64,000 bases of DNA from Oscillospiraceae bacterium (lineage in GTDB: Bacteria > Bacillota > Clostridia > Oscillospirales > SIG627): assembly GCA_015064635.1 (NCBI GenBank), contig SVRV01000002.1:80140-144139 (forward strand), given 5' to 3'. The position numbers were made by a program, and so were the translations under genes. Shown here one piece after another: positions 3,058 through 58,273 of the stretch; within the stretch, counting starts at the first letter, position 1; each line of letters starts with the position of its first letter. Below the pieces are notes generated by a model. That model saw only the letters and a list, made by a program, of their open reading frames with translations. It had not been told where the DNA came from and did not search any database.

Positions 3058-4788
3058 ATGTTTTTACCCATAAATAGAAAAGAAATGGAAGAACGAGGAT
3101 GGGATTCTCCTGATTTCGTTTTTGTAAGCGGAGATGCATACGTTGACCATTCAAGCTTTGCAGTAGCCATTATATCAAGATATCTTGAAAAACACGGCTT
3201 CAAAATTGCAATCCTCGCGCAACCTGATTGGAAAAATGCAGACAGCTTTAAAGAATTCGGTCAACCGAGACTGGGATTCCTTATTGCTTCAGGAAATATG
3301 GATTCAATGGTAGCGCATTATACCGTAGCAAAGAAGAAAAGGAACTATGACTATTACTCACCGGGAGGTAAAATAGGCAAACGTCCCGATAGAGCCACAA
3401 TTGTGTATTCAAATAAAATCAGAGAAGCATTCGGTGACATTCCGATAATAATAGGCGGAGTAGAGGCATCACTGAGAAGATTTGCACATTATGATTATTG
3501 GGACAACAAGGTCAGGAACAGTATTCTGATTGACTCCGGTGCCGACATACTCATATACGGTATGGGAGAAAAGGCAGCTCTTGAAATTGCAAAGCTTCTC
3601 GACAGAGGAGTTCCTGTAAAGAAAATTAAAAATATTCGCGGTACCTGCGTACTCTGTCAAAGAGACTACATTCCAAAAGGAAGCTATGACTTCATCGGCG
3701 AAATTGAAGAGCTAAAAACAAGCAAGGAGCTTTATGCACAAGCTTTTGCAACTCAATATATAAATTGTGACAGTATATCCGGAAAAACCTTGCTCGAGGG
3801 AAACGGAAACAGATTACTTGTACAAAATCCACCAATGCCCCCACTTGAAAGAAAAGAACTCGATTTGGTATACGAGCTTGATTATATGAGGGACTACCAT
3901 CCCATATATAAAAAAGAAGGCGGCGTTCCCGCCATACAAGAAGTAAAGTTCTCTATTACCCACAATCGCGGATGCTTCGGCGCCTGCTCTTTTTGTGCAA
4001 TTGCATTTCATCAAGGGCGTGCTGTTCGCTCTCGCTCAATTGAATCTTGCGTTAAGGAAGCCAAGCTTTTAACAGAGCTCCCCGATTTCAAGGGCTATAT
4101 TCATGATGTTGGCGGTCCAACTGCTAACTTCAGGCATCCGGCTTGCGACAAACAGCTGACAGACGGAGTATGTGCCAATAAACGATGCTTATCACCAACC
4201 CCTTGCAAAAATTTAAAAATTGACCATTCTGAATATATAGAATTGCTGAAACGAATTGAAAATGTTCCTAAAGTAAAGAAAGTATTCATTAGGTCCGGTA
4301 TACGTTTCGATTATGTCATGTATGATAAAGACGACGGATTTATGAAAAAGCTGGTAAAAGATCACGTAAGCGGTCAGCTGAGAGTCGCACCCGAACATAA
4401 TTCCAAAAACGTATTGGAAATAATGGGAAAACCTGATATAAGTATTTATAACGGATTTTGTAACAAGTTTTACAAGCTGTCAAGAGAAATTGGCAAAGAA
4501 CAGTATGTTCTACCATACCTTATGTCGAGCCATCCCGGTTCAACAATGGAAGATGCACATAATCTTTCCGACTACATCAAGGAACATAATTTACCGTCAG
4601 AACAAGTTCAAGACTTTTATCCTACCCCTTCTACAAAATCAACCTGCATTTATTACACAGGAATTGACCCTTTTACAAAGAAGAAGATTTACACTGCAAC
4701 CAATTATAAAGAAAAACAGGAGCAAAGAAAATTGCTTCAACCGTCAAAGCCACCCAAAAAGACCTTTGTTTCCAAAAAGAAGAAATAA
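3058..4788 (+). CDS. ygiQ: YgiQ-family radical SAM protein (UPF0313)
   Basis: Family-typical N-terminus MFLPINRKEMEERGWDSPDFVFVSGDAYVDHSSFAVAIISRYLE, CFGACSFC radical-SAM cluster motif, and a Lys-rich tail. Confidence 0.85.
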   Translation: MFLPINRKEMEERGWDSPDFVFVSGDAYVDHSSFAVAIISRYLEKHGFKIAILAQPDWKNADSFKEFGQPRLGFLIASGNMDSMVAHYTVAKKKRNYDYYSPGGKIGKRPDRATIVYSNKIREAFGDIPIIIGGVEASLRRFAHYDYWDNKVRNSILIDSGADILIYGMGEKAALEIAKLLDRGVPVKKIKNIRGTCVLCQRDYIPKGSYDFIGEIEELKTSKELYAQAFATQYINCDSISGKTLLEGNGNRLLVQNPPMPPLERKELDLVYELDYMRDYHPIYKKEGGVPAIQEVKFSITHNRGCFGACSFCAIAFHQGRAVRSRSIESCVKEAKLLTELPDFKGYIHDVGGPTANFRHPACDKQLTDGVCANKRCLSPTPCKNLKIDHSEYIELLKRIENVPKVKKVFIRSGIRFDYVMYDKDDGFMKKLVKDHVSGQLRVAPEHNSKNVLEIMGKPDISIYNGFCNKFYKLSREIGKEQYVLPYLMSSHPGSTMEDAHNLSDYIKEHNLPSEQVQDFYPTPSTKSTCIYYTGIDPFTKKKIYTATNYKEKQEQRKLLQPSKPPKKTFVSKKKK

Positions 4789-4838: not shown

Positions 4839-6512
4839 TTATGCGTTTAAATTAATAAAGAACATTTCCGGTTCTGACTTATCTGCCGACTCCGCAGAAC
4901 GGGGTTCAACGATGAAATTGTAGGGATTAACAAAAACTCCGTCAACGCATACACCGAAGAAAAATTCTGCTGATGAAACGGCAAAAGCAGAAGGTGCCGC
5001 ATTGCCCAATAAATCTCCCGACTCTACCGCATCTCCCTGTTTGAACGCAGAAACATCATCAAGATGTCCGTATACGGTATTTATTCCCAAGCCGTGATTG
5101 ATTATTACCGTATTTCCGTAAAGGGATGTATTTCCCGCAAAAGCTATAATACCTTTTCCGGTCGCTCTTACGGGCAATGACACAGAAGTTGAAGACTTGA
5201 CGTAATGAATACCAAAGCTTATGTTTGCTATTTCTGTGCCGTCAACTATTTGCTTTACTCCGTAAGTAGGAGAAGAAATCCAATACTGTTCAATGCCGTC
5301 AATATACTTCTGAGTAGGTGTTGTCAATCCGTAAATCCATTCAGCACCGCCGTAAACAGTTTTAAATGCAGATGAAATCTCATTGACAAACAAATCTGAT
5401 GCGGCGTTGTAAGAGGTTGCAGGTTCACCGCCTACAAAGCTGACATTTACGGCTGAAAAATTCTTGTCGCTTACCGTAATAGGAATAGATAGTGCTGTTT
5501 TATCCGACTTAACACTTACGTGATACTCGCCTGCGGGAGTATCTGCAGGTATGGGCAAAGTAATCACCTTACCATTGAGATATGAGCGGGGCGTAATTCC
5601 TTCGATGCCGCTTATATCCGTAGAAACATCAAGCGTTTCGTCATTTACGTTTAAAACATTGATATATACAACTTCGCCCTGGAAAGCATTTTCCTTGCTT
5701 ATGGAATATTCTGCTCTAATATCAAAGTCAAAAAGAAAATCATATGTCACGTTTCCATTGTATAAGCTGTTGGTCTCTTCATACCACTGTGCGGTAACAC
5801 TGGCACGCAATTTTGCTTCACTCTCGAAAGGTACTTCGGCAACGCTGTCAAGCAAACCGTCATAAACCAATATATCACCGTCAAATATTTTGACATTATA
5901 CCAATCGGGTTCGATATCAAATTCAAATTCAAAACCATCGCCTGACACTATAAACATATCGGTATCACTTGGCTCATCGGGTCCCGCCAATACCTCTGCA
6001 TAACTGCCATCAAAAAGTATATAACGCCACTTACCTTGCGAAGCTGACAGTCTTACACTTTTTGTACCGGACGAAAACGTCATTAACGGAATGTCGCAAT
6101 ATTTATAAACATCAGTTACATTTTGAGCTGAAAGGAAACGGCTTGCGTATTCACTGTCGATTCTGTACCAATTTCCTTTTTCGTCGTACGCGATACAATT
6201 CTTAACGTCAGCACTCAAGCACAAATAATAAGTTTCATCGCCTTGTACTCTTTCAAACTTTATCGTATACAAGGAATAGACATTTTCGTCAAATACTTGG
6301 TCATCGATACTTGTTAAATTGTTTTTCAAATCAATATATAAGCCTTTATCATCCGAATTTGAATACACCTTTTCGCTACCGTCAGGCATAGTAAGGTGAA
6401 CAGAAGAAACGTTTGATGAAGTATACTTATTACCTGTAACCGTAAACATCCATACCGCAATTACCACTGCAGGTATAAGTAAAACTATAAGAAATAATGC
6501 CTTTTTATTCAT
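4839..6512 (-). CDS. membrane-anchored protein with a degenerate (non-catalytic) M23/LytM domain
   Basis: N-terminal TM helix (ALFLIVLLIPAVVIAVWMF). The C-terminal LytM fold signature is YGNTVIINHGLGINTVYGHLD. The HxxxD position reads SFGIHY, and no HxH motif exists after GDLLGN (no His at all). Confidence 0.7.
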   Translation of the reverse strand: MNKKALFLIVLLIPAVVIAVWMFTVTGNKYTSSNVSSVHLTMPDGSEKVYSNSDDKGLYIDLKNNLTSIDDQVFDENVYSLYTIKFERVQGDETYYLCLSADVKNCIAYDEKGNWYRIDSEYASRFLSAQNVTDVYKYCDIPLMTFSSGTKSVRLSASQGKWRYILFDGSYAEVLAGPDEPSDTDMFIVSGDGFEFEFDIEPDWYNVKIFDGDILVYDGLLDSVAEVPFESEAKLRASVTAQWYEETNSLYNGNVTYDFLFDFDIRAEYSISKENAFQGEVVYINVLNVNDETLDVSTDISGIEGITPRSYLNGKVITLPIPADTPAGEYHVSVKSDKTALSIPITVSDKNFSAVNVSFVGGEPATSYNAASDLFVNEISSAFKTVYGGAEWIYGLTTPTQKYIDGIEQYWISSPTYGVKQIVDGTEIANISFGIHYVKSSTSVSLPVRATGKGIIAFAGNTSLYGNTVIINHGLGINTVYGHLDDVSAFKQGDAVESGDLLGNAAPSAFAVSSAEFFFGVCVDGVFVNPYNFIVEPRSAESADKSEPEMFFINLNA

Positions 6513-53874: not shown

Positions 53875-54963
53875 ATGGCAATAATTACAGTAATTTGTTC
53901 GGGAATGATGGGAACTGCCATTACTTTCCCGGCAGCACAAAACGGCCATACCATTCGTTTGGTTGGCTCTCCGTTGGACAATGATATAATTGAACACGGT
54001 CAAAAGACAAAGGAGCATCTCAATCTGTCAAAGTACAGAAAGAACAATCCCACAAGCGGAGTTGATGCACCGGTACTAACTTCCGATAATGTTACCTTCC
54101 ACTATTTTGAAGAAATGGAGGAATGTATCAAAGGGGCTGACCTAATTATTTGCGGTGTATCATCCTTTGGTATTGACTGGTTCTGCAACAATGTAATTCC
54201 AAAGCTTCCGGCAGAAATTCCCCTCTTGTCAATTTCAAAGGGCATGGTAGACGACGGAGAAAATAAAGGTCGTCTCATATCCTATCCCGAGTATATGCAA
54301 CGATTCACAGATAAGGATTTAAAAATCTACGCAGTCGGAGGCCCCTGCACATCATATGAGCTTGTAGACCGTGACCCCACAGAGGTTACCTTCTGCGGAC
54401 CCGATATGAATACACTTCGTTGGTTGCGTGGGATATTTGAGACCGACTATTACCATATAAGCCTTTCGACGGATGTAAGAGGTGTAGAATGTACCGTTGC
54501 ATTAAAGAATGCTTATGCTCTTGGTGTCGCTCTTGCTGTCGGCATGTCTTATAAAAGAGAAGGTAGAGAGTTTGAGCATTACAATTCTCAGGCGGGCTTG
54601 TTTACTCAAGCATCAAAGGAAATGTATCAGCTGTTAGATGTTTTCGGCGGTACTGCAGAGCGCAATATTTTCCTTGGTATAGGAGACCTTTACGTTACGA
54701 TTTTCGGTGGAAGAAACAGAAGGCTTGGTACTTTACTCGGTCAGGGCTACACCTATGACGAGGCAATAAGTCAATTGGGCGGAGTAACTCTCGAAGGTAT
54801 AGTTATAACAGAGAGAACCGCAAAGGCGGTTAAGCAGCTTGCCGAGCTTGGAGAAATCAACATTAAAGATTACCCGTTGCTTATGCATATAAATGAACTG
54901 TTGTTTGAAAACAAGAGAATCAATGTACCGTGGAAGGCATTTGAGACAGAGTATCAAGGATAA
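53875..54963 (+). CDS. NAD(P)-dependent glycerol-3-phosphate dehydrogenase family protein (GpsA-like, divergent)
   Basis: Rossmann start MAIITVICSGMMGTA and a SISKGM segment, with the GpsA C-domain layout. Start moved to the ATG at 53875. Confidence 0.6.
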   Translation: MAIITVICSGMMGTAITFPAAQNGHTIRLVGSPLDNDIIEHGQKTKEHLNLSKYRKNNPTSGVDAPVLTSDNVTFHYFEEMEECIKGADLIICGVSSFGIDWFCNNVIPKLPAEIPLLSISKGMVDDGENKGRLISYPEYMQRFTDKDLKIYAVGGPCTSYELVDRDPTEVTFCGPDMNTLRWLRGIFETDYYHISLSTDVRGVECTVALKNAYALGVALAVGMSYKREGREFEHYNSQAGLFTQASKEMYQLLDVFGGTAERNIFLGIGDLYVTIFGGRNRRLGTLLGQGYTYDEAISQLGGVTLEGIVITERTAKAVKQLAELGEINIKDYPLLMHINELLFENKRINVPWKAFETEYQG

Positions 54964-54978
54964 AGGCTTAAACATAAC

Positions 54979-55012
54979 AAAACCGACAAGTATTTAATCT
55001 TGTCGGTTTTTT
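54979..55012 (+). terminator. intrinsic terminator after the GpsA-like gene
   Basis: AAAACCGACAAG / CTTGTCGGTTTT 12-bp stem followed by a T-run. Confidence 0.75.
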
Positions 55013-55140
55013 GAATATAATGACCCTTAACATTTTTATTATAACATGTTTTTTATCCAATGTAAAGAAAAAACATATGCTGAAATAAAATTTCTCTTTG
55101 GTGCACAAAAAACGAGTTAAATGTTTTGCATTTTTGTCAA

Positions 55141-55169
55141 TTGAAAAAAGTGCAAAAAGATGCTATACT
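55141..55169 (+). promoter_or_regulatory. near-consensus sigma-A promoter with no protein gene behind it
   Basis: TTGAAA, 17 nt, TATACT, with a TGc extended -10. Confidence 0.6.
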
Positions 55170-55175
55170 ATAAAC

Positions 55176-55408
55176 GAAGAAAGGAAGGTACACTCCAATG
55201 AACAAATAAACCTTCAAAAGTGACGACGGCGAAAACACGGCGGTGTAACGCAGAAGATATATAAATATAACAAGGAGAAAATATAATTCCCGTCATCGTC
55301 ACAAACAATTCAAATAGTAGAAAGAGAGGAAACCTTAGATGCTCGATATCAAGACAGAACAGAAATAACCCTCAACAGCGAATGTTGTTGAGGGTTATTT
55401 CTTTTGAG
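55176..55408 (+). ncRNA. candidate ~230-nt small RNA or orphan leader (unclassified)
   Basis: Bounded by the promoter above and a 15-bp-stem terminator. It has a long-range helix: GUGACGACGG (55220-55229) with CCGUCAUCGUCAC (55289-55302). It also holds two SD-preceded micro-ORFs: MNK at 55198-55209 and MLDIKTEQK at 55339-55368. Confidence 0.4.
55363..55408 (+). terminator. strong unidirectional intrinsic terminator
   Basis: AAATAACCCTCAACA (55363-55377) pairs with TGTTGAGGGTTATTT (55386-55400), followed by CTTTTG. There is no U-run in the minus orientation. Confidence 0.8.
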
Positions 55409-55723
55409 TGTGACTTAATAACAGTGTTATTCCTTGTTAAAGTTCAAATTTAGTTTATGGTTCAAGCCCCTCTGTCCGATCCTTTTCTTACTTTTTGCAA
55501 AAAAAGGACACCGGCATTTTGGTCATTTTCGAGTATAAAAAGAGTGTCATAGTATCTTTTTCAAGCAGCTCCGAATCTGATTCTTGTATGTTTTTCCTTT
55601 CTCAGACACAAAGCTAAAAACAGTCCTCAGGACTGTTTTCTTCACGCTTTGTCCCCTCCCAGGGTTCAAGTCCCTTCCATTTATAACAAAAAGAAAAGAG
55701 TACCTCTGGTACTCTTTTCTTTT

Positions 55724-55745
55724 TGGTGCGAGAGACGGGACTTGA
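55724..55745 (-). pseudogene. orphan copy of the last 22 nt of tRNA-Leu(GAG), from the T-loop to CCA
   Basis: TCAAGTCCCGTCTCTCGCACCA (minus strand) is identical to 55906-55927. The upstream sequence is unrelated to the tRNA body. Confidence 0.85.
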
Positions 55746-55842
55746 CGCAAATCTTTGATTTGCTCTTTCTTCGGGCATAGCCCTCAGACACAAAGCTAAA
55801 AACAGTCCTCAGGACTGTTTTCTTCACGCTTTGTCCCCTCCC
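55746..55842. repeat. conserved hairpin-rich module, copy 1 (the right-hand 60 nt also occur at 55601-55660)
   Basis: Three hairpins: GCAAATC-ttt-GATTTGC; GGGC-ata-GCCC; and ACAAAGC...GCTTTGT enclosing ACAGTCC-tca-GGACTGT. About 90% identical to 56168-56263. Confidence 0.8.
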
Positions 55843-55868
55843 AGGGTTCAAGTCCCTTCCATTTATAA

Positions 55869-55905
55869 CAAAAAGAAAAGAGTACCTTTGGTACTCTTTT
55901 CTTTT
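55869..55905 (-). terminator. intrinsic terminator directly after tRNA-Leu(GAG) (a copy lies at 55687-55723)
   Basis: AAAAGAGTACC aaa GGTACTCTTTT, followed by CTTTTT. It is flanked by runs on both sides, so it could act bidirectionally. Confidence 0.75.
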
Positions 55906-55988
55906 TGGTGCGAGAGACGGGACTTGAACCCGTACGGATAACCACACGCCCCTCAAACGTGCGCGTCTGCCAATTTCGCCACTCTCGC
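55906..55988 (-). tRNA. tRNA-Leu (anticodon GAG), CCA encoded
   Basis: Manual cloverleaf. Acceptor GCGAGAG/CUCUCGC. D-arm GCG-AAAUUGGCAGA-CGC. Anticodon arm CACGU-UUGAGGG-GCGUG. Long variable arm. T-arm ACGGG-UUCAAGU-CCCGU. Ends ACCA. Confidence 0.9.
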
Positions 55989-56013
55989 ATAGGTCTCTCA
56001 ACTGACCTTTTAT

Positions 56014-56041
56014 ATTATACACATTTTTTTGTAAATGTCAA
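56014..56041 (-). promoter_or_regulatory. sigma-A promoter for tRNA-Leu(GAG)
   Basis: Minus strand: TTGACA, 16 nt, TATAAT, about 25 nt before the tRNA 5' end. Confidence 0.7.
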
Positions 56042-56145
56042 TACCTTTTGAAGAAAAAGTTTAAATTAGTTTTTATGAGGTTCAAGTCCTTCATTTTATC
56101 ATATCAAAAATATAGAGAGTACCTTTTGGGTACTCTCTATATTTT

Positions 56146-56167
56146 TGGTGCGGATAGCAGGACTTGA
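56146..56167 (-). pseudogene. orphan copy of the last 22 nt of tRNA-Leu(CAG)
   Basis: TCAAGTCCTGCTATCCGCACCA (minus strand) is identical to 56333-56354. Confidence 0.85.
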
Positions 56168-56263
56168 CGCAAATCAAGATTTGCTATCTCCTCGGGCATA
56201 GCCCTCGGACACAAAGCTAAAAACAGTCCACAGGACTGTTTTCTTCACGCTTTGTCCCTCCTT
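56168..56263. repeat. conserved hairpin-rich module, copy 2
   Basis: Same three-hairpin layout as 55746-55842. The differences are confined to hairpin loops and linkers. Confidence 0.8.
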
Positions 56264-56332
56264 GAGGTTCAAGTCCTCTCTTTTATCATATCAAAAATAT
56301 AGAGAGTACCTTTTGGGCACTCTCTATATTTT

Positions 56333-56419
56333 TGGTGCGGATAGCAGGACTTGAACCTGTACCGAATCACTCCGACTAGAACCTGAATCTAGCGCGTCTG
56401 CCAATTCCGCCATATCCGC
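56333..56419 (-). tRNA. tRNA-Leu (anticodon CAG), CCA encoded
   Basis: Manual cloverleaf. Acceptor GCGGAUA/UAUCCGC. D-arm GCG-GAAUUGGCAGA-CGC. Anticodon arm CUAGA-UUCAGGU-UCUAG. Long variable arm. T-loop UUCAAGU. Confidence 0.9.
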
Positions 56420-56432
56420 ATACAACAGATGT

Positions 56433-56461
56433 ATTATATCAAAACAAAGCGCGTTTGTCAA
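56433..56461 (-). promoter_or_regulatory. consensus sigma-A promoter for tRNA-Leu(CAG)
   Basis: Minus strand: TTGACA, 17 nt, TATAAT. Confidence 0.75.
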
Positions 56462-56481
56462 GTGAAAACGCTAAAATAAAT

Positions 56482-56517
56482 CAAAAGACAGACACCCCGT
56501 CATATAGCGGGGTGTCT
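56482..56517 (-). terminator. intrinsic terminator of the hydrogenase operon
   Basis: AGACACCCCG (56490-56499) pairs with CGGGGTGTCT (56508-56517), followed on the minus strand by a U-rich tract. Confidence 0.7.
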
Positions 56518-56536
56518 TGAGCTTTTATGCTAATGA

Positions 56537-58273
56537 TTACATTTTCTTTCTCGGAACGTATGTTGTATGAAGGTCATGGTGAGCCTTGTGACCGCCGAAT
56601 CCGTCGTAATACTCTTCATAGAGCTTCTTAACAACGGGAGACTCATGTGACTTTCTGATAGCCATTGCTGCATCCTGATCGTAGAGCGCCTTAGCACGTA
56701 CCGCCTTAAGGTCAACTGTATCACGAACAGACTGAGGCTGAATAGGCTGACCGCCGCCGTTTACACAACCGCCGGGACATCCCATGATTTCAACGAATGT
56801 CCAATCAGAGTTACCGCTTGCGATTCTGTCCATAACTACCTTAGCAGCAGCTGCACCACTTGCAACAGCAACCTTGATATCAAGACCTGCTATATTGAGA
56901 GATGCTTCCTTGAGACCGTCTGTACCACGAACTGCAGTAAAGTCGATTTCTGTGTTATCCTTACCTGTGAGCCAGTCATTAGCTGTACGGAGAGCTGCCT
57001 CCATAACACCGCCTGTTGCACCAAAGATAACAGCAGCACCTGTATCTTCACCAAGAGGAGAATCGAATTCTTCATCGGGAAGAGATGTGAACTTGAGTCC
57101 GGCACGTTCAATCATTCTGCCGAGTTCTCTTGTTGTGATTGCGATATCAACATCGGGAACACCTGCAGCGCTCTGGTCATCTCTGCCTATCTCGAACTTC
57201 TTAGCTGTACAAGGCATAACTGATACTGATACGATATCCTTGGGGTCTATACCCATCTTTTCAGCATAATATGTCTTGATAACCGCACCTGCCATCTGTT
57301 GAGGAGACTTACAAGATGAAAGGTGAGCGAGGAATTCGGGATAATAGTATTCAGCAAACTTAACCCATCCGGGGGAGCATGAAGTAATCATGGGGAGAAC
57401 TCCGCCATTCTTTACTCTGTCGATAAGCTCGTTTGCTTCTTCAACGATTGTAAGGTCAGCTGCAAAGTCTGTGTCGAATACCTTGTCAAAGCCAAGTCTT
57501 CTGAGAGCTGCAACCATCTTACCTTCTACATTTGTACCGATAGGCATACCGAAGCACTCACCGAGAGTTGCACGAACTGAAGGAGCAGTCTGAACAACTA
57601 CGTGCTTTGTGGGATCAGCAATAGCTGCCCAAACCTTATCTGTATCATCCTTTTCTGTAAGAGCACCGGTGGGACATACCGCTGTACACTGACCGCATGA
57701 AATACATGAAGTAGCGTTGAGCTTTACATTGAAGGGATTACCGATATTTGTATCGATACCTCTGTCGTTAGCACCGATGATAGATACATACTGCTGGTCA
57801 CAAACAGCAACACAGCGACGGCAAAGGATACACTTGTTGTTATCACGAACAAGGTGGGGAGCAGACTCATCAAGCTCATACTCACGCTTGTAACCGCCAA
57901 ATGCATTTTCATCAACTCCGTACTCACGGCAGAGCTTCTGGAGTTCACAGTTTGTTGAACGCTTACAAGACAGACACTTCTTATCATGTGTTGAAAGAAT
58001 AAGTTCGAGAGTGGTCTTACGAGCCTTCTGAATTTTTTCGGTATTTGTCTGTATTTCCATGCCTTCGGCTACAGGATATACACAAGCGGTAACAAGACCT
58101 CTTGCACCTGTTGCCTCAACAACACATATACGGCAAGCACCTATTTCGTTAATATCCTTCATGAAGCAAAGGGTGGGGATTTCTACACCTGCAACACGTG
58201 CTGCTTCAAGAATTGTTGATCCCTTGGGCACGCTGACAGCAATGCCATTTACTTTACAATTAATCATTTCCAT
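56537..58273 (-). CDS. hydA: [FeFe]-hydrogenase catalytic subunit, M3 architecture (HydA of multimeric NAD(P)H-linked enzymes)
   Basis: N-terminal 2Fe-2S, a His-ligated 4Fe-4S, and two ferredoxin-type clusters. H-cluster motifs are TSCSPGW, MPCTAKKFE and EIMGCPGGCVNGGGQP. Confidence 0.9.
   Translation of the reverse strand: MEMINCKVNGIAVSVPKGSTILEAARVAGVEIPTLCFMKDINEIGACRICVVEATGARGLVTACVYPVAEGMEIQTNTEKIQKARKTTLELILSTHDKKCLSCKRSTNCELQKLCREYGVDENAFGGYKREYELDESAPHLVRDNNKCILCRRCVAVCDQQYVSIIGANDRGIDTNIGNPFNVKLNATSCISCGQCTAVCPTGALTEKDDTDKVWAAIADPTKHVVVQTAPSVRATLGECFGMPIGTNVEGKMVAALRRLGFDKVFDTDFAADLTIVEEANELIDRVKNGGVLPMITSCSPGWVKFAEYYYPEFLAHLSSCKSPQQMAGAVIKTYYAEKMGIDPKDIVSVSVMPCTAKKFEIGRDDQSAAGVPDVDIAITTRELGRMIERAGLKFTSLPDEEFDSPLGEDTGAAVIFGATGGVMEAALRTANDWLTGKDNTEIDFTAVRGTDGLKEASLNIAGLDIKVAVASGAAAAKVVMDRIASGNSDWTFVEIMGCPGGCVNGGGQPIQPQSVRDTVDLKAVRAKALYDQDAAMAIRKSHESPVVKKLYEEYYDGFGGHKAHHDLHTTYVPRKKM

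Follow-up and report, generated by a model that had tools for sequence, protein, structure and literature searches.

Introduction

Repeats that carry a copy of the 3′ end of a neighbouring tRNA have been known in Escherichia coli since 1978, where these tRNA-linked repeats (TLRs) include the 178-bp repeats of the tyrT locus, the rtT RNA (rttR) and Rfam family RF00391 (Egan and Landy 1978 and Rudd 1999, both as cited in PMC8144298). A TLR is defined by its place in the operon, by 18–19 bp of 3′ identity and by an occurrence of 1–5 copies per locus, and E. coli holds 22 such units at ten loci, one to five at each, with no established function (PMC8144298). Here we analyse two tRNA-Leu loci of an Oscillospiraceae bacterium, both lying in one 64,000-nt stretch of contig SVRV01000002.1, which we call the window throughout and whose positions we use. 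Behind both tRNA genes we find a module of ~130 nt, hereafter M, that is flanked by terminators and carries at its two ends an antisense and a sense copy of part of the adjacent tRNA. We favour the reading that M is a structured RNA module in the 3′ flank of the tRNA unit and a Firmicute analogue of the E. coli TLRs, to which we assign a probability of about 0.65. The family is apparently new and so far undescribed, within a known but obscure kind of element.

A second precedent is the T1-rrB-T2 small RNA (sRNA) of the E. coli rrnB operon, for which transcription by read-through of T1 and subsequent processing have been shown, and for which the repeated 3′ end has been proposed as a processing signal (PMC8144298).

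A 182-bp repeat behind tRNA-Leu(GAG) copies the tRNA 3′ end

All features of the locus lie on the minus strand. A sigma-70-type promoter (56014..56041, 12/12 consensus matches) precedes tRNA-Leu(GAG) (55906-55988; Rfam tRNA model, 49.7 bits), which is followed by T1(GAG), a hairpin made of an A-tract, a stem-loop and a T-tract (copy 1, an inverted repeat at 55869..55907). Starting 49 nt past CCA is a 13-nt box (box 1, 55844..55856), GGGACTTGAACCC, which is the exact reverse complement of the GAG T-arm GGGTTCAAGTCCC. A 98-nt module separates this box from an exact 22-nt copy of the tRNA 3′ end, TCAAGTCCCGTCTCTCGCACCA, at 55724-55745, which runs from T-loop position 55 through CCA. Box, module and copy together make up the complete M1(GAG) (55724..55856), which comprises the box, helices P1a, P2/P3, P4 and P5 and the tRNA copy, and is supported by fold, covariation and the covariance model R1 described below. 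The series then begins again, with a second T1 (55687..55725, again an inverted repeat) and, by repeat comparison, a second box with the first 61 nt of M (M2, 55601..55674; box 2 alone, 55662-55674). M2 ends just past the 3′ strand of P2, and the sequence from 55600 on is unrelated.

A repeat search aligned 55927-55783 with 55745-55601 (145 nt, 99% identity, spacing 182), giving 1.8 units of 182 bp at this locus; Tandem Repeats Finder did not report the repeat because it has fewer than two copies. The sole mismatch between the units is a base in the T1 hairpin loop (ACC-AAA-GGT versus ACC-AGA-GGT). The initial annotation had described this order of parts, a single-base difference in a hairpin loop and a breakpoint inside the T-loop, and we recovered every one of them in place. 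A box within one mismatch of the motif occurs 9 times against 0.68 expected, which excludes a chance origin of the boxes.

The arrangement is reproduced by three independent assemblies. JGI contig L006, from another sample, is 100% identical to the window over 54001-56398 and reaches unique sequence at either end, and contigs L007 and L010 each traverse both repeat copies from the unique downstream side, which rules out an assembly artefact peculiar to this record. An assembly artefact, in which reads fail to span the repeat, had been named at the outset as one way in which the observation might fail; L006 spans it. Short-read metagenome contigs of the window species mostly end in or beside the tRNA-module region (L001-L005, L008-L011), and the repeats break assemblies systematically beside these tRNA genes.

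These data bear on a trivial explanation, namely that the repeat is a recent, silent tandem duplication or an artefact without biological meaning, which we consider very improbable. It would account for GAG units that stand only one base apart, for a second, partial M that occurs in one strain or species only and for short-read assemblies that often break here. It has against it the agreement among assemblies and, as shown below, the conservation of the T1-box-M-copy unit across species and loci, with covariation, which confines this explanation to the extra 0.8 unit. That extra part, being only one base apart from the first unit, may indeed be recent and, taken alone, neutral.

The arrangement recurs at tRNA-Leu(CAG)

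The adjacent tRNA-Leu(CAG) carries the same succession of T1, box, module, 22-nt copy, T1 and box, again on the minus strand, a parallel that the initial annotation had missed. A sigma-70-type promoter (TTGACA, 17-nt spacer, TATAAT; 56433..56461, 12/12 consensus positions) precedes the tRNA (56333..56419, by tRNA prediction and Rfam), and T1(CAG), an inverted repeat with A-tract, stem-loop and T-tract, follows directly 3′ of CCA (56292..56334). The box, AGGACTTGAACCT (56265..56277), starts 55 nt past CCA, is exactly antisense to the T-arm of this tRNA and supplies, with its first 9 nt, the 5′ strand of helix P1. Module M(CAG), counted with its box and its tRNA copy TCAAGTCCTGCTATCCGCACCA (56146-56167), spans 56146..56277 and has a fold z-score of -5.05. 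Box and copy fit the CAG tRNA and not the GAG tRNA. Two direct repeats, 56354-56263 and 56167-56076 (92 nt, 96% identical, spacing 187), flank this one module; the distal part of the second holds the second T1 and box (56076..56147), behind which the tail ATAAAAACTAATTTAAACTTT follows.

The M cores of the two loci are ~95% identical and their terminators quite different, a contrast that the initial annotation had also missed. It indicates that the module is the conserved part and that the flanking copies have been homogenised within each locus. A box followed by the tail ATAAA(A)ACTAA(A)TTTRAACTTT occurs twice on the minus strand, once behind the CAG unit (56055-56090) and once ~130 nt past the truncated GAG module (55439-55470). 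The motif search that found the latter shows its box, GGGGCTTGAACC, to be degenerate, and it is probably the relic of an older unit end. Since box and tail occur at both loci, their sequences suggest that duplication of a single block gave rise to both tRNA-Leu units and that the GAG locus retains the decayed end of an older unit.

A conserved folded element, probably read from the tRNA strand

M1(GAG) has a predicted fold of -58.9 kcal/mol with a z-score of -5.49, and the GAG and CAG modules share the same junction fold, with z-scores near -5. In both window copies, the junction is closed by P1, in which the leading 9 nt of the box pair with the beginning of the tRNA copy; the junction also contains a small hairpin (P1a), a long hairpin (P2/P3) and further hairpins P4 and P5. 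Between the two window modules, compensatory changes fall in P1, in P1a and in the helix flanking P4. Family-wide, P1 comprises 6-12 nt from the start of the box paired with the tRNA copy, and the core of the junction is the long P2/P3 hairpin with its near-invariant AGCGUNAAGAAAACAGUCC-NGNG-GGACUGUUUUUAGC. Among low-GC members P3 and its flanks are nearly invariant (AGCGTNAAGAAAACAGTCC-NGNG-GGACTGTTTTTAGC).

An alignment of 10 sequences placed standard pairs in 95.5% of cells. Pairs changed on both sides numbered 12, against 5.8 in column shuffles, and none of 500 shuffles reached 12; a control with slid partners gave at most 3 two-sided changes. In well-aligned helices, G·U pairs filled 18 cells and A·C about 2; one such G·U stands at the base of P3 in 9 of the 10 sequences. 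This large excess of G·U over A·C argues that the selected strand is the tRNA strand and that selection acts on RNA. M is a conserved structured element.

The covariance model R1, built from 13 copies, scores M1(GAG) at 128.9 bits and M(CAG) at 126 bits, and it recovers copies outside its training set (L033 and L034 at E ~1e-9, L048 at E 3e-10). A further comparison comes from L013, metagenome-assembled genome RGIG6353 of a sheep-gut Clostridia of another species, in which the same tRNA-Leu(GAG) is followed by an identical M core. There T1 is completely different from that of the window and is again present twice, and P5 has been swapped for a different, perfectly paired hairpin. The initial annotation had held that relatives bearing this tRNA with a single plain terminator would speak against it; in L013 this tRNA is followed by both the module and a duplicated terminator.

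Known RNA families do not cover M. At the gathering threshold, Rfam returned only the two tRNAs in the whole window, and at E values up to 10 within 55200-56600 it added only meaningless miRNA-type hairpin matches. Three other accounts of parts of the locus were set aside. A main role for P3 as a plain terminator does not fit a sequence that is kept across species, nor the GC-rich members L033 and L037, in which the hairpin persists and the U-run is missing. A degenerate or antisense tRNA was rejected as an account of M since no tRNA model matches M on either strand. Fold-back copying would be expected to leave a perfect palindrome around T1, and by inspection the spacers flanking T1 are not complementary.

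Family members fit both ends to the local tRNA

A survey based on exact patterns and on open reading frames (ORFs) mis-called across M recovered members behind eight tRNA species: Leu(GAG, CAG, TAG, TAA), Pro(CGG), Arg(ACG), Ser(GGA) and Ala(TGC). An exact 20-mer of the core matched only L013 among GTDB representative genomes (one per species), a set that apparently does not include the window genome, and had no match in a metagenome collection that lacks the JGI carrier contigs. A structural pattern (a box, then 85-112 nt, then GCGTCAAGTCC) gave 22 matches in the metagenome collection, 7 of them real and the rest antisense tRNA genes. Further members came from a protein-database search with the translated module.

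We tabulated the fit of both ends for 13 units, namely the two window loci and 11 others. The first box starts 43-55 nt past the tRNA at the window loci and in the 11 first units elsewhere. In 11 of the 13 units the box is the exact antisense of the local T-arm over 12-16 nt, across four T-loop sequences (TTCAAGT, TTCGAGC, TTCGAGT and TTCGAAT); the two-unit loci provide the exceptions, their more diverged unit having a degenerate box (10 nt in L040b, 8 nt in L047a). The 3′ copy matches the local tRNA 3′ end exactly, over 22 nt at the window loci and 17-22 nt at the 11 other units. The box overshoots the pairable part of the truncated copy by 3-9 nt and is thus an image of the entire T-arm, not just the partner strand of P1.

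Unit forms vary. An unrelated second terminator, with no second box, follows the unit in L042, L050, L051 and L033; two diverged modules stand in tandem in L040 with no terminator between them; and T1 is duplicated in L047, L013 and both window loci. L040 and L047 hold two units each. At least 10 of 153 mis-called ORFs (P0001-P0153) contain the translated P3 motif SVKKTVxWTVFS two or three times, at spacings of mostly 135-222 nt. Given this variety and these multi-copy ORFs, repetition is a normal state of the family, as in E. coli.

Predicted proteins with the SVKKTVxWTVFS motif make up at least 190 database clusters (at 50% identity). That M encodes a small protein, like the 'tpr' ORF in the E. 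coli tyrT repeats, is extremely improbable, even though many members have one open frame across P3, which gene calling has picked up in these clusters. No start codon or ribosome-binding site is conserved, the frame from box to P3 shifts between subfamilies (DLNP versus GLEP), the ORFs run on across terminators and tRNA genes, and substitutions compensate one another in the RNA helices (in P3 of L040a and L040b), so that M does not behave as a Tpr-like small-protein gene. The 'hypothetical proteins' with this motif appear to be annotation errors over the RNA.

One array lies apart from tRNA genes. In L046 (GCA_900527955.1), positions 5040-5400 hold at least 2.5 tandem units of ~156 nt with the P3 core and a terminator-like hairpin, adjoining rpsI and rplM and with no tRNA gene within 10 kb; the R1 match there is limited to model positions 23-107 (E ~1e-7).

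M shares the architecture of E. coli tRNA-linked repeats

The initial annotation had noted a likeness to the tRNA-linked repeats downstream of E. coli tyrT, which our comparison with that locus (L039) supports. Each 178-bp unit there ends in a 19-nt tRNA copy that begins inside the T-loop, and a 10-nt antisense box, GGGGAAGGAT, pairs with this copy and closes a multi-stem fold. Both families lie directly 3′ of the tRNA in the same orientation, finish each unit with a repeat of the tRNA 3′ end from within the T-loop onwards (22 nt here, against 19 nt in E. coli), use an internal antisense box to close a multi-stem fold of ~100-130 nt and form tandem arrays of one to a few units with a spurious small ORF inside. 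M agrees with the TLR definition in location and orientation, in 3′ identity and in units per locus. The two differ in that the box here stands at the extreme 5′ end and is a full antisense T-arm, whereas that of E. coli is 10 nt directed against the T-stem and the 3′ strand of the acceptor; in the strong hairpin terminator that here separates tRNA and unit and is sometimes part of the repeat; and in the host, a Clostridia-type Firmicute and not an enterobacterium.

Two other kinds of E. coli RNA resemble M in part. The T1-rrA/B/F-T2 sRNAs of rrnA, rrnB and rrnD likewise place a module between two terminators and repeat, at the 3′ end, the upstream stable RNA (its last 18 nt in E. coli). They stand behind 5S rRNA and not tRNA, are unrelated in sequence, have been shown to bind Hfq and CsrA, and have T1 and T2 that differ from each other, whereas T2 here is a copy of T1. 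The sRNAs of the 3′ETS-leuZ type, as cited in PMC8144298, are functional RNAs that also derive from the 3′ flank of a tRNA transcript; they are unlike M in having no tRNA 3′ copy, no antisense box and no tandem repetition.

E. coli tRNA-linked repeats have so far been treated as an enterobacterial curiosity. A second family with the same architecture and unrelated sequence, standing behind at least 8 tRNA species in Clostridia-type Firmicutes, suggests that the design of antisense box, folded core and tRNA-tail copy is selected or mechanistically generated. It also offers what the E. coli family lacked, enough diverged copies for a covariation-based structure and for asking how each new host tRNA comes to be matched at both ends. 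In practical terms, at least 190 clusters of 'hypothetical protein' are apparently mis-called over M, and the element breaks short-read assemblies beside tRNA genes. The earlier statement that no equivalent had been reported for Clostridia agrees with Rfam, where there is no match, and with our literature searches; these found no earlier description outside E. coli in a library that is incomplete, which makes this absence of evidence only.

A possible route of expression and repetition

By analogy with E. coli rrnB T1-rrB-T2, M would be read from the tRNA strand by read-through of a leaky T1, and the next terminator would end its transcription. In the AT-rich subfamily M might alternatively be transcribed from a -10-like element between T1 and the box (TGTTATAAA at GAG, TGATATGAT at CAG, TATAAT in L042); this element is absent in GC-richer members, and for that reason we do not rely on it. 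The tRNA-identical tail is a sequence on which the tRNA 3′-end machinery of the cell acts, and it may couple 3′ maturation or stability of M to the tRNA pathway. Since the tail matches the tRNA 3′ end, M could be released and stabilised in step with tRNA output.

Most likely the tandem copy arose by unequal recombination. The 182-bp tandem at GAG and the duplicated T1 and box at CAG could both result from unequal homologous recombination or gene conversion, with the tRNA 3′ end plus T1 as one partner and the copy lying downstream as the other. Gene conversion would then keep T1 nearly identical within a locus while it diverges between loci and between species.

Several observations weigh against M as an RNA of the TLR kind made in this way. 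RF00391, which scores 134-138 bits on the E. coli units (gathering score 45 bits), has no match in window positions 55200-56600 at E values up to 10, and R1 has none in the E. coli locus L039 at E values up to 1. With no homology detectable in either direction, we regard M as the same kind of element by architecture but as a new family. Transcription, T1 read-through, the 5′ and 3′ ends and processing are all inferred, and T1 resembles an efficient terminator and is present in every unit at the GAG locus. The full T-arm box (13-16 nt) exceeds the pairable stretch by 3-9 nt, which closure of P1 leaves unaccounted for; the excess hints that the box pairs with the tRNA itself or with the tRNA gene, or that it arose through inverted copying. 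In the predicted fold, P1 sequesters T-loop nucleotides and leaves a 13-nt tail unpaired, so that M RNA is no structural mimic of the acceptor/T minihelix. Recombination alone, finally, does not explain the spread to new tRNA loci with both ends refitted.

The copies carry T-arm antisense beyond their own folding need together with a tRNA sense copy from ~55 to CCA, which raises a further idea, that M is a widespread 'self-tailoring' tRNA-linked element acting on, or propagating through, host tRNA. We hold this to be speculative and on balance unlikely. If it were true, the RNA might pair with host pre-tRNA, tRNA or tRNA fragments, serving as a quality-control sensor, as a sponge or as a spare 3′ fragment after cleavage in the T-loop. 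In a second version, templated copying would refit both ends at each newly colonised tRNA gene, and the E. coli TLRs would be an independent product of this principle.

Possible mobility of M and recombination at its sites

The near-identical P3 core behind eight unrelated tRNA species indicates that the module has moved between loci. The main rival to our reading, conceivable if rather unlikely, is that M is a primarily selfish, non-autonomous mobile element that homes to tRNA genes and leaves a long target duplication, with the layout X-M-X. Such an element would insert between the T-loop and a point past the terminator, and its fold would be that of an RNA or single-stranded DNA intermediate and not the mark of a role in the cell. 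Long direct repeats of local sequence flank M at both window loci, in L013 and in L047, the box and copy amount to terminal inverted repeats of 9-12 bp, tandem arrays are common and metagenome contigs break at these sites, all of which such an element would share. So would a 2.9-kb restriction-modification island between two unit copies in L042 and the inversion of a tRNA-Pro-M cassette between relatives, both described below.

Other observations point away from it. We found no integrase, transposase or reverse transcriptase gene beside the ~12 family loci examined, and saw neither an empty site nor a short target duplication. The terminator is not duplicated at L042 (first copy), L019, L040, L050, L051 or L033. 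The ends vary by locus, as they would not in an element that carries its own, and the G·U asymmetry and the conserved junction nucleotides fit a functional RNA. Of the features of a miniature inverted-repeat transposable element, M has inverted termini of 9-12 bp but no short duplication, and its copies, as seen on the contigs examined, are tRNA-linked with locus-specific ends.

Insertion with long target duplication was reportedly described by the Kobayashi laboratory around 2000 for restriction-modification gene units. As in those insertions, a segment here lies between direct repeats of local sequence of ~100 bp or more, the segment being M itself in the X-M-X layout and a restriction-modification island between two units in L042. 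Unlike them, M is not a gene cassette.

The att cores of islands that target tRNA genes start in the T-loop and run through CCA. The repeat described here begins and runs likewise, and the initial annotation had pointed to the T-loop breakpoint as a crossover position of many tyrosine-integrase elements that target tRNA genes while noting that the locus has no integrase and only ~100 nt of cargo. One could hence take the direct repeats for the attL and attR of a decayed, T-loop-crossing tyrosine-integrase element and M for its remnant end, a view to which the island between two unit copies in L042 also lends itself. We judge it quite improbable, and it is largely refuted already. The absence of an integrase was borne out, both among the window neighbours (hydrogenase, DeoR and glycerol-3-phosphate-dehydrogenase genes) and at every other locus examined, and no recombinase gene adjoins the repeat, although the repeat does include the 3′ part of the tRNA. 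A BLAST search with the unit found no match in phage and plasmid collections; a scan of viral contigs gave one chance 18-mer match in a giant-virus bin, and a structural-pattern scan of viral contigs gave three false positives, all antisense tRNA. The supposed cargo is a conserved, folded 98-nt module, and this 'remnant' keeps one RNA-like structure behind eight tRNA species and has the architecture of the E. coli repeats. Unlike att sites, the copies take in the host terminator, which is different in each species; at GAG the repeat runs ~70 nt beyond the tRNA, through terminator and box. In L042 the repeat at the left end has no tRNA part.

Contig L042 (JGI 3300018495, a sample that also holds the species of the window) carries two direct T1-box-M-copy-T2 units, at 1415-1640 and 4537-4690, behind tRNA-Leu(TAG). 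The 2.9-kb island between them has no integrase and encodes a helix-turn-helix (HTH) protein, an MjaI-like restriction enzyme, an unknown ORF, an N6/N4 methyltransferase and a second HTH protein. T1 of the distal copy is 100% identical, and a clean deletion between two CAAAGC repeats has removed 75 nt from the distal M. At tRNA-Pro(CGG), a promoter-tRNA-T1-M cassette is inverted relative to both flanking genes between two related organisms, with L019 (4780-5170) on one side of the comparison and L029 (1-520) and L017 (1-230) on the other; L029 also has a degenerate, partial second M of ~95 nt that is missing from L017, an indel polymorphism. The island and the inverted cassette show that these sites are recombinationally active, and favour neither the RNA reading nor the mobile-element reading.

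Lastly, the interval that separates the tRNA region from the glycerol-3-phosphate-dehydrogenase-like gene holds a hairpin with a perfect 20-bp stem (55358-55405), which resembles a terminator on the minus strand and is unrelated to M.

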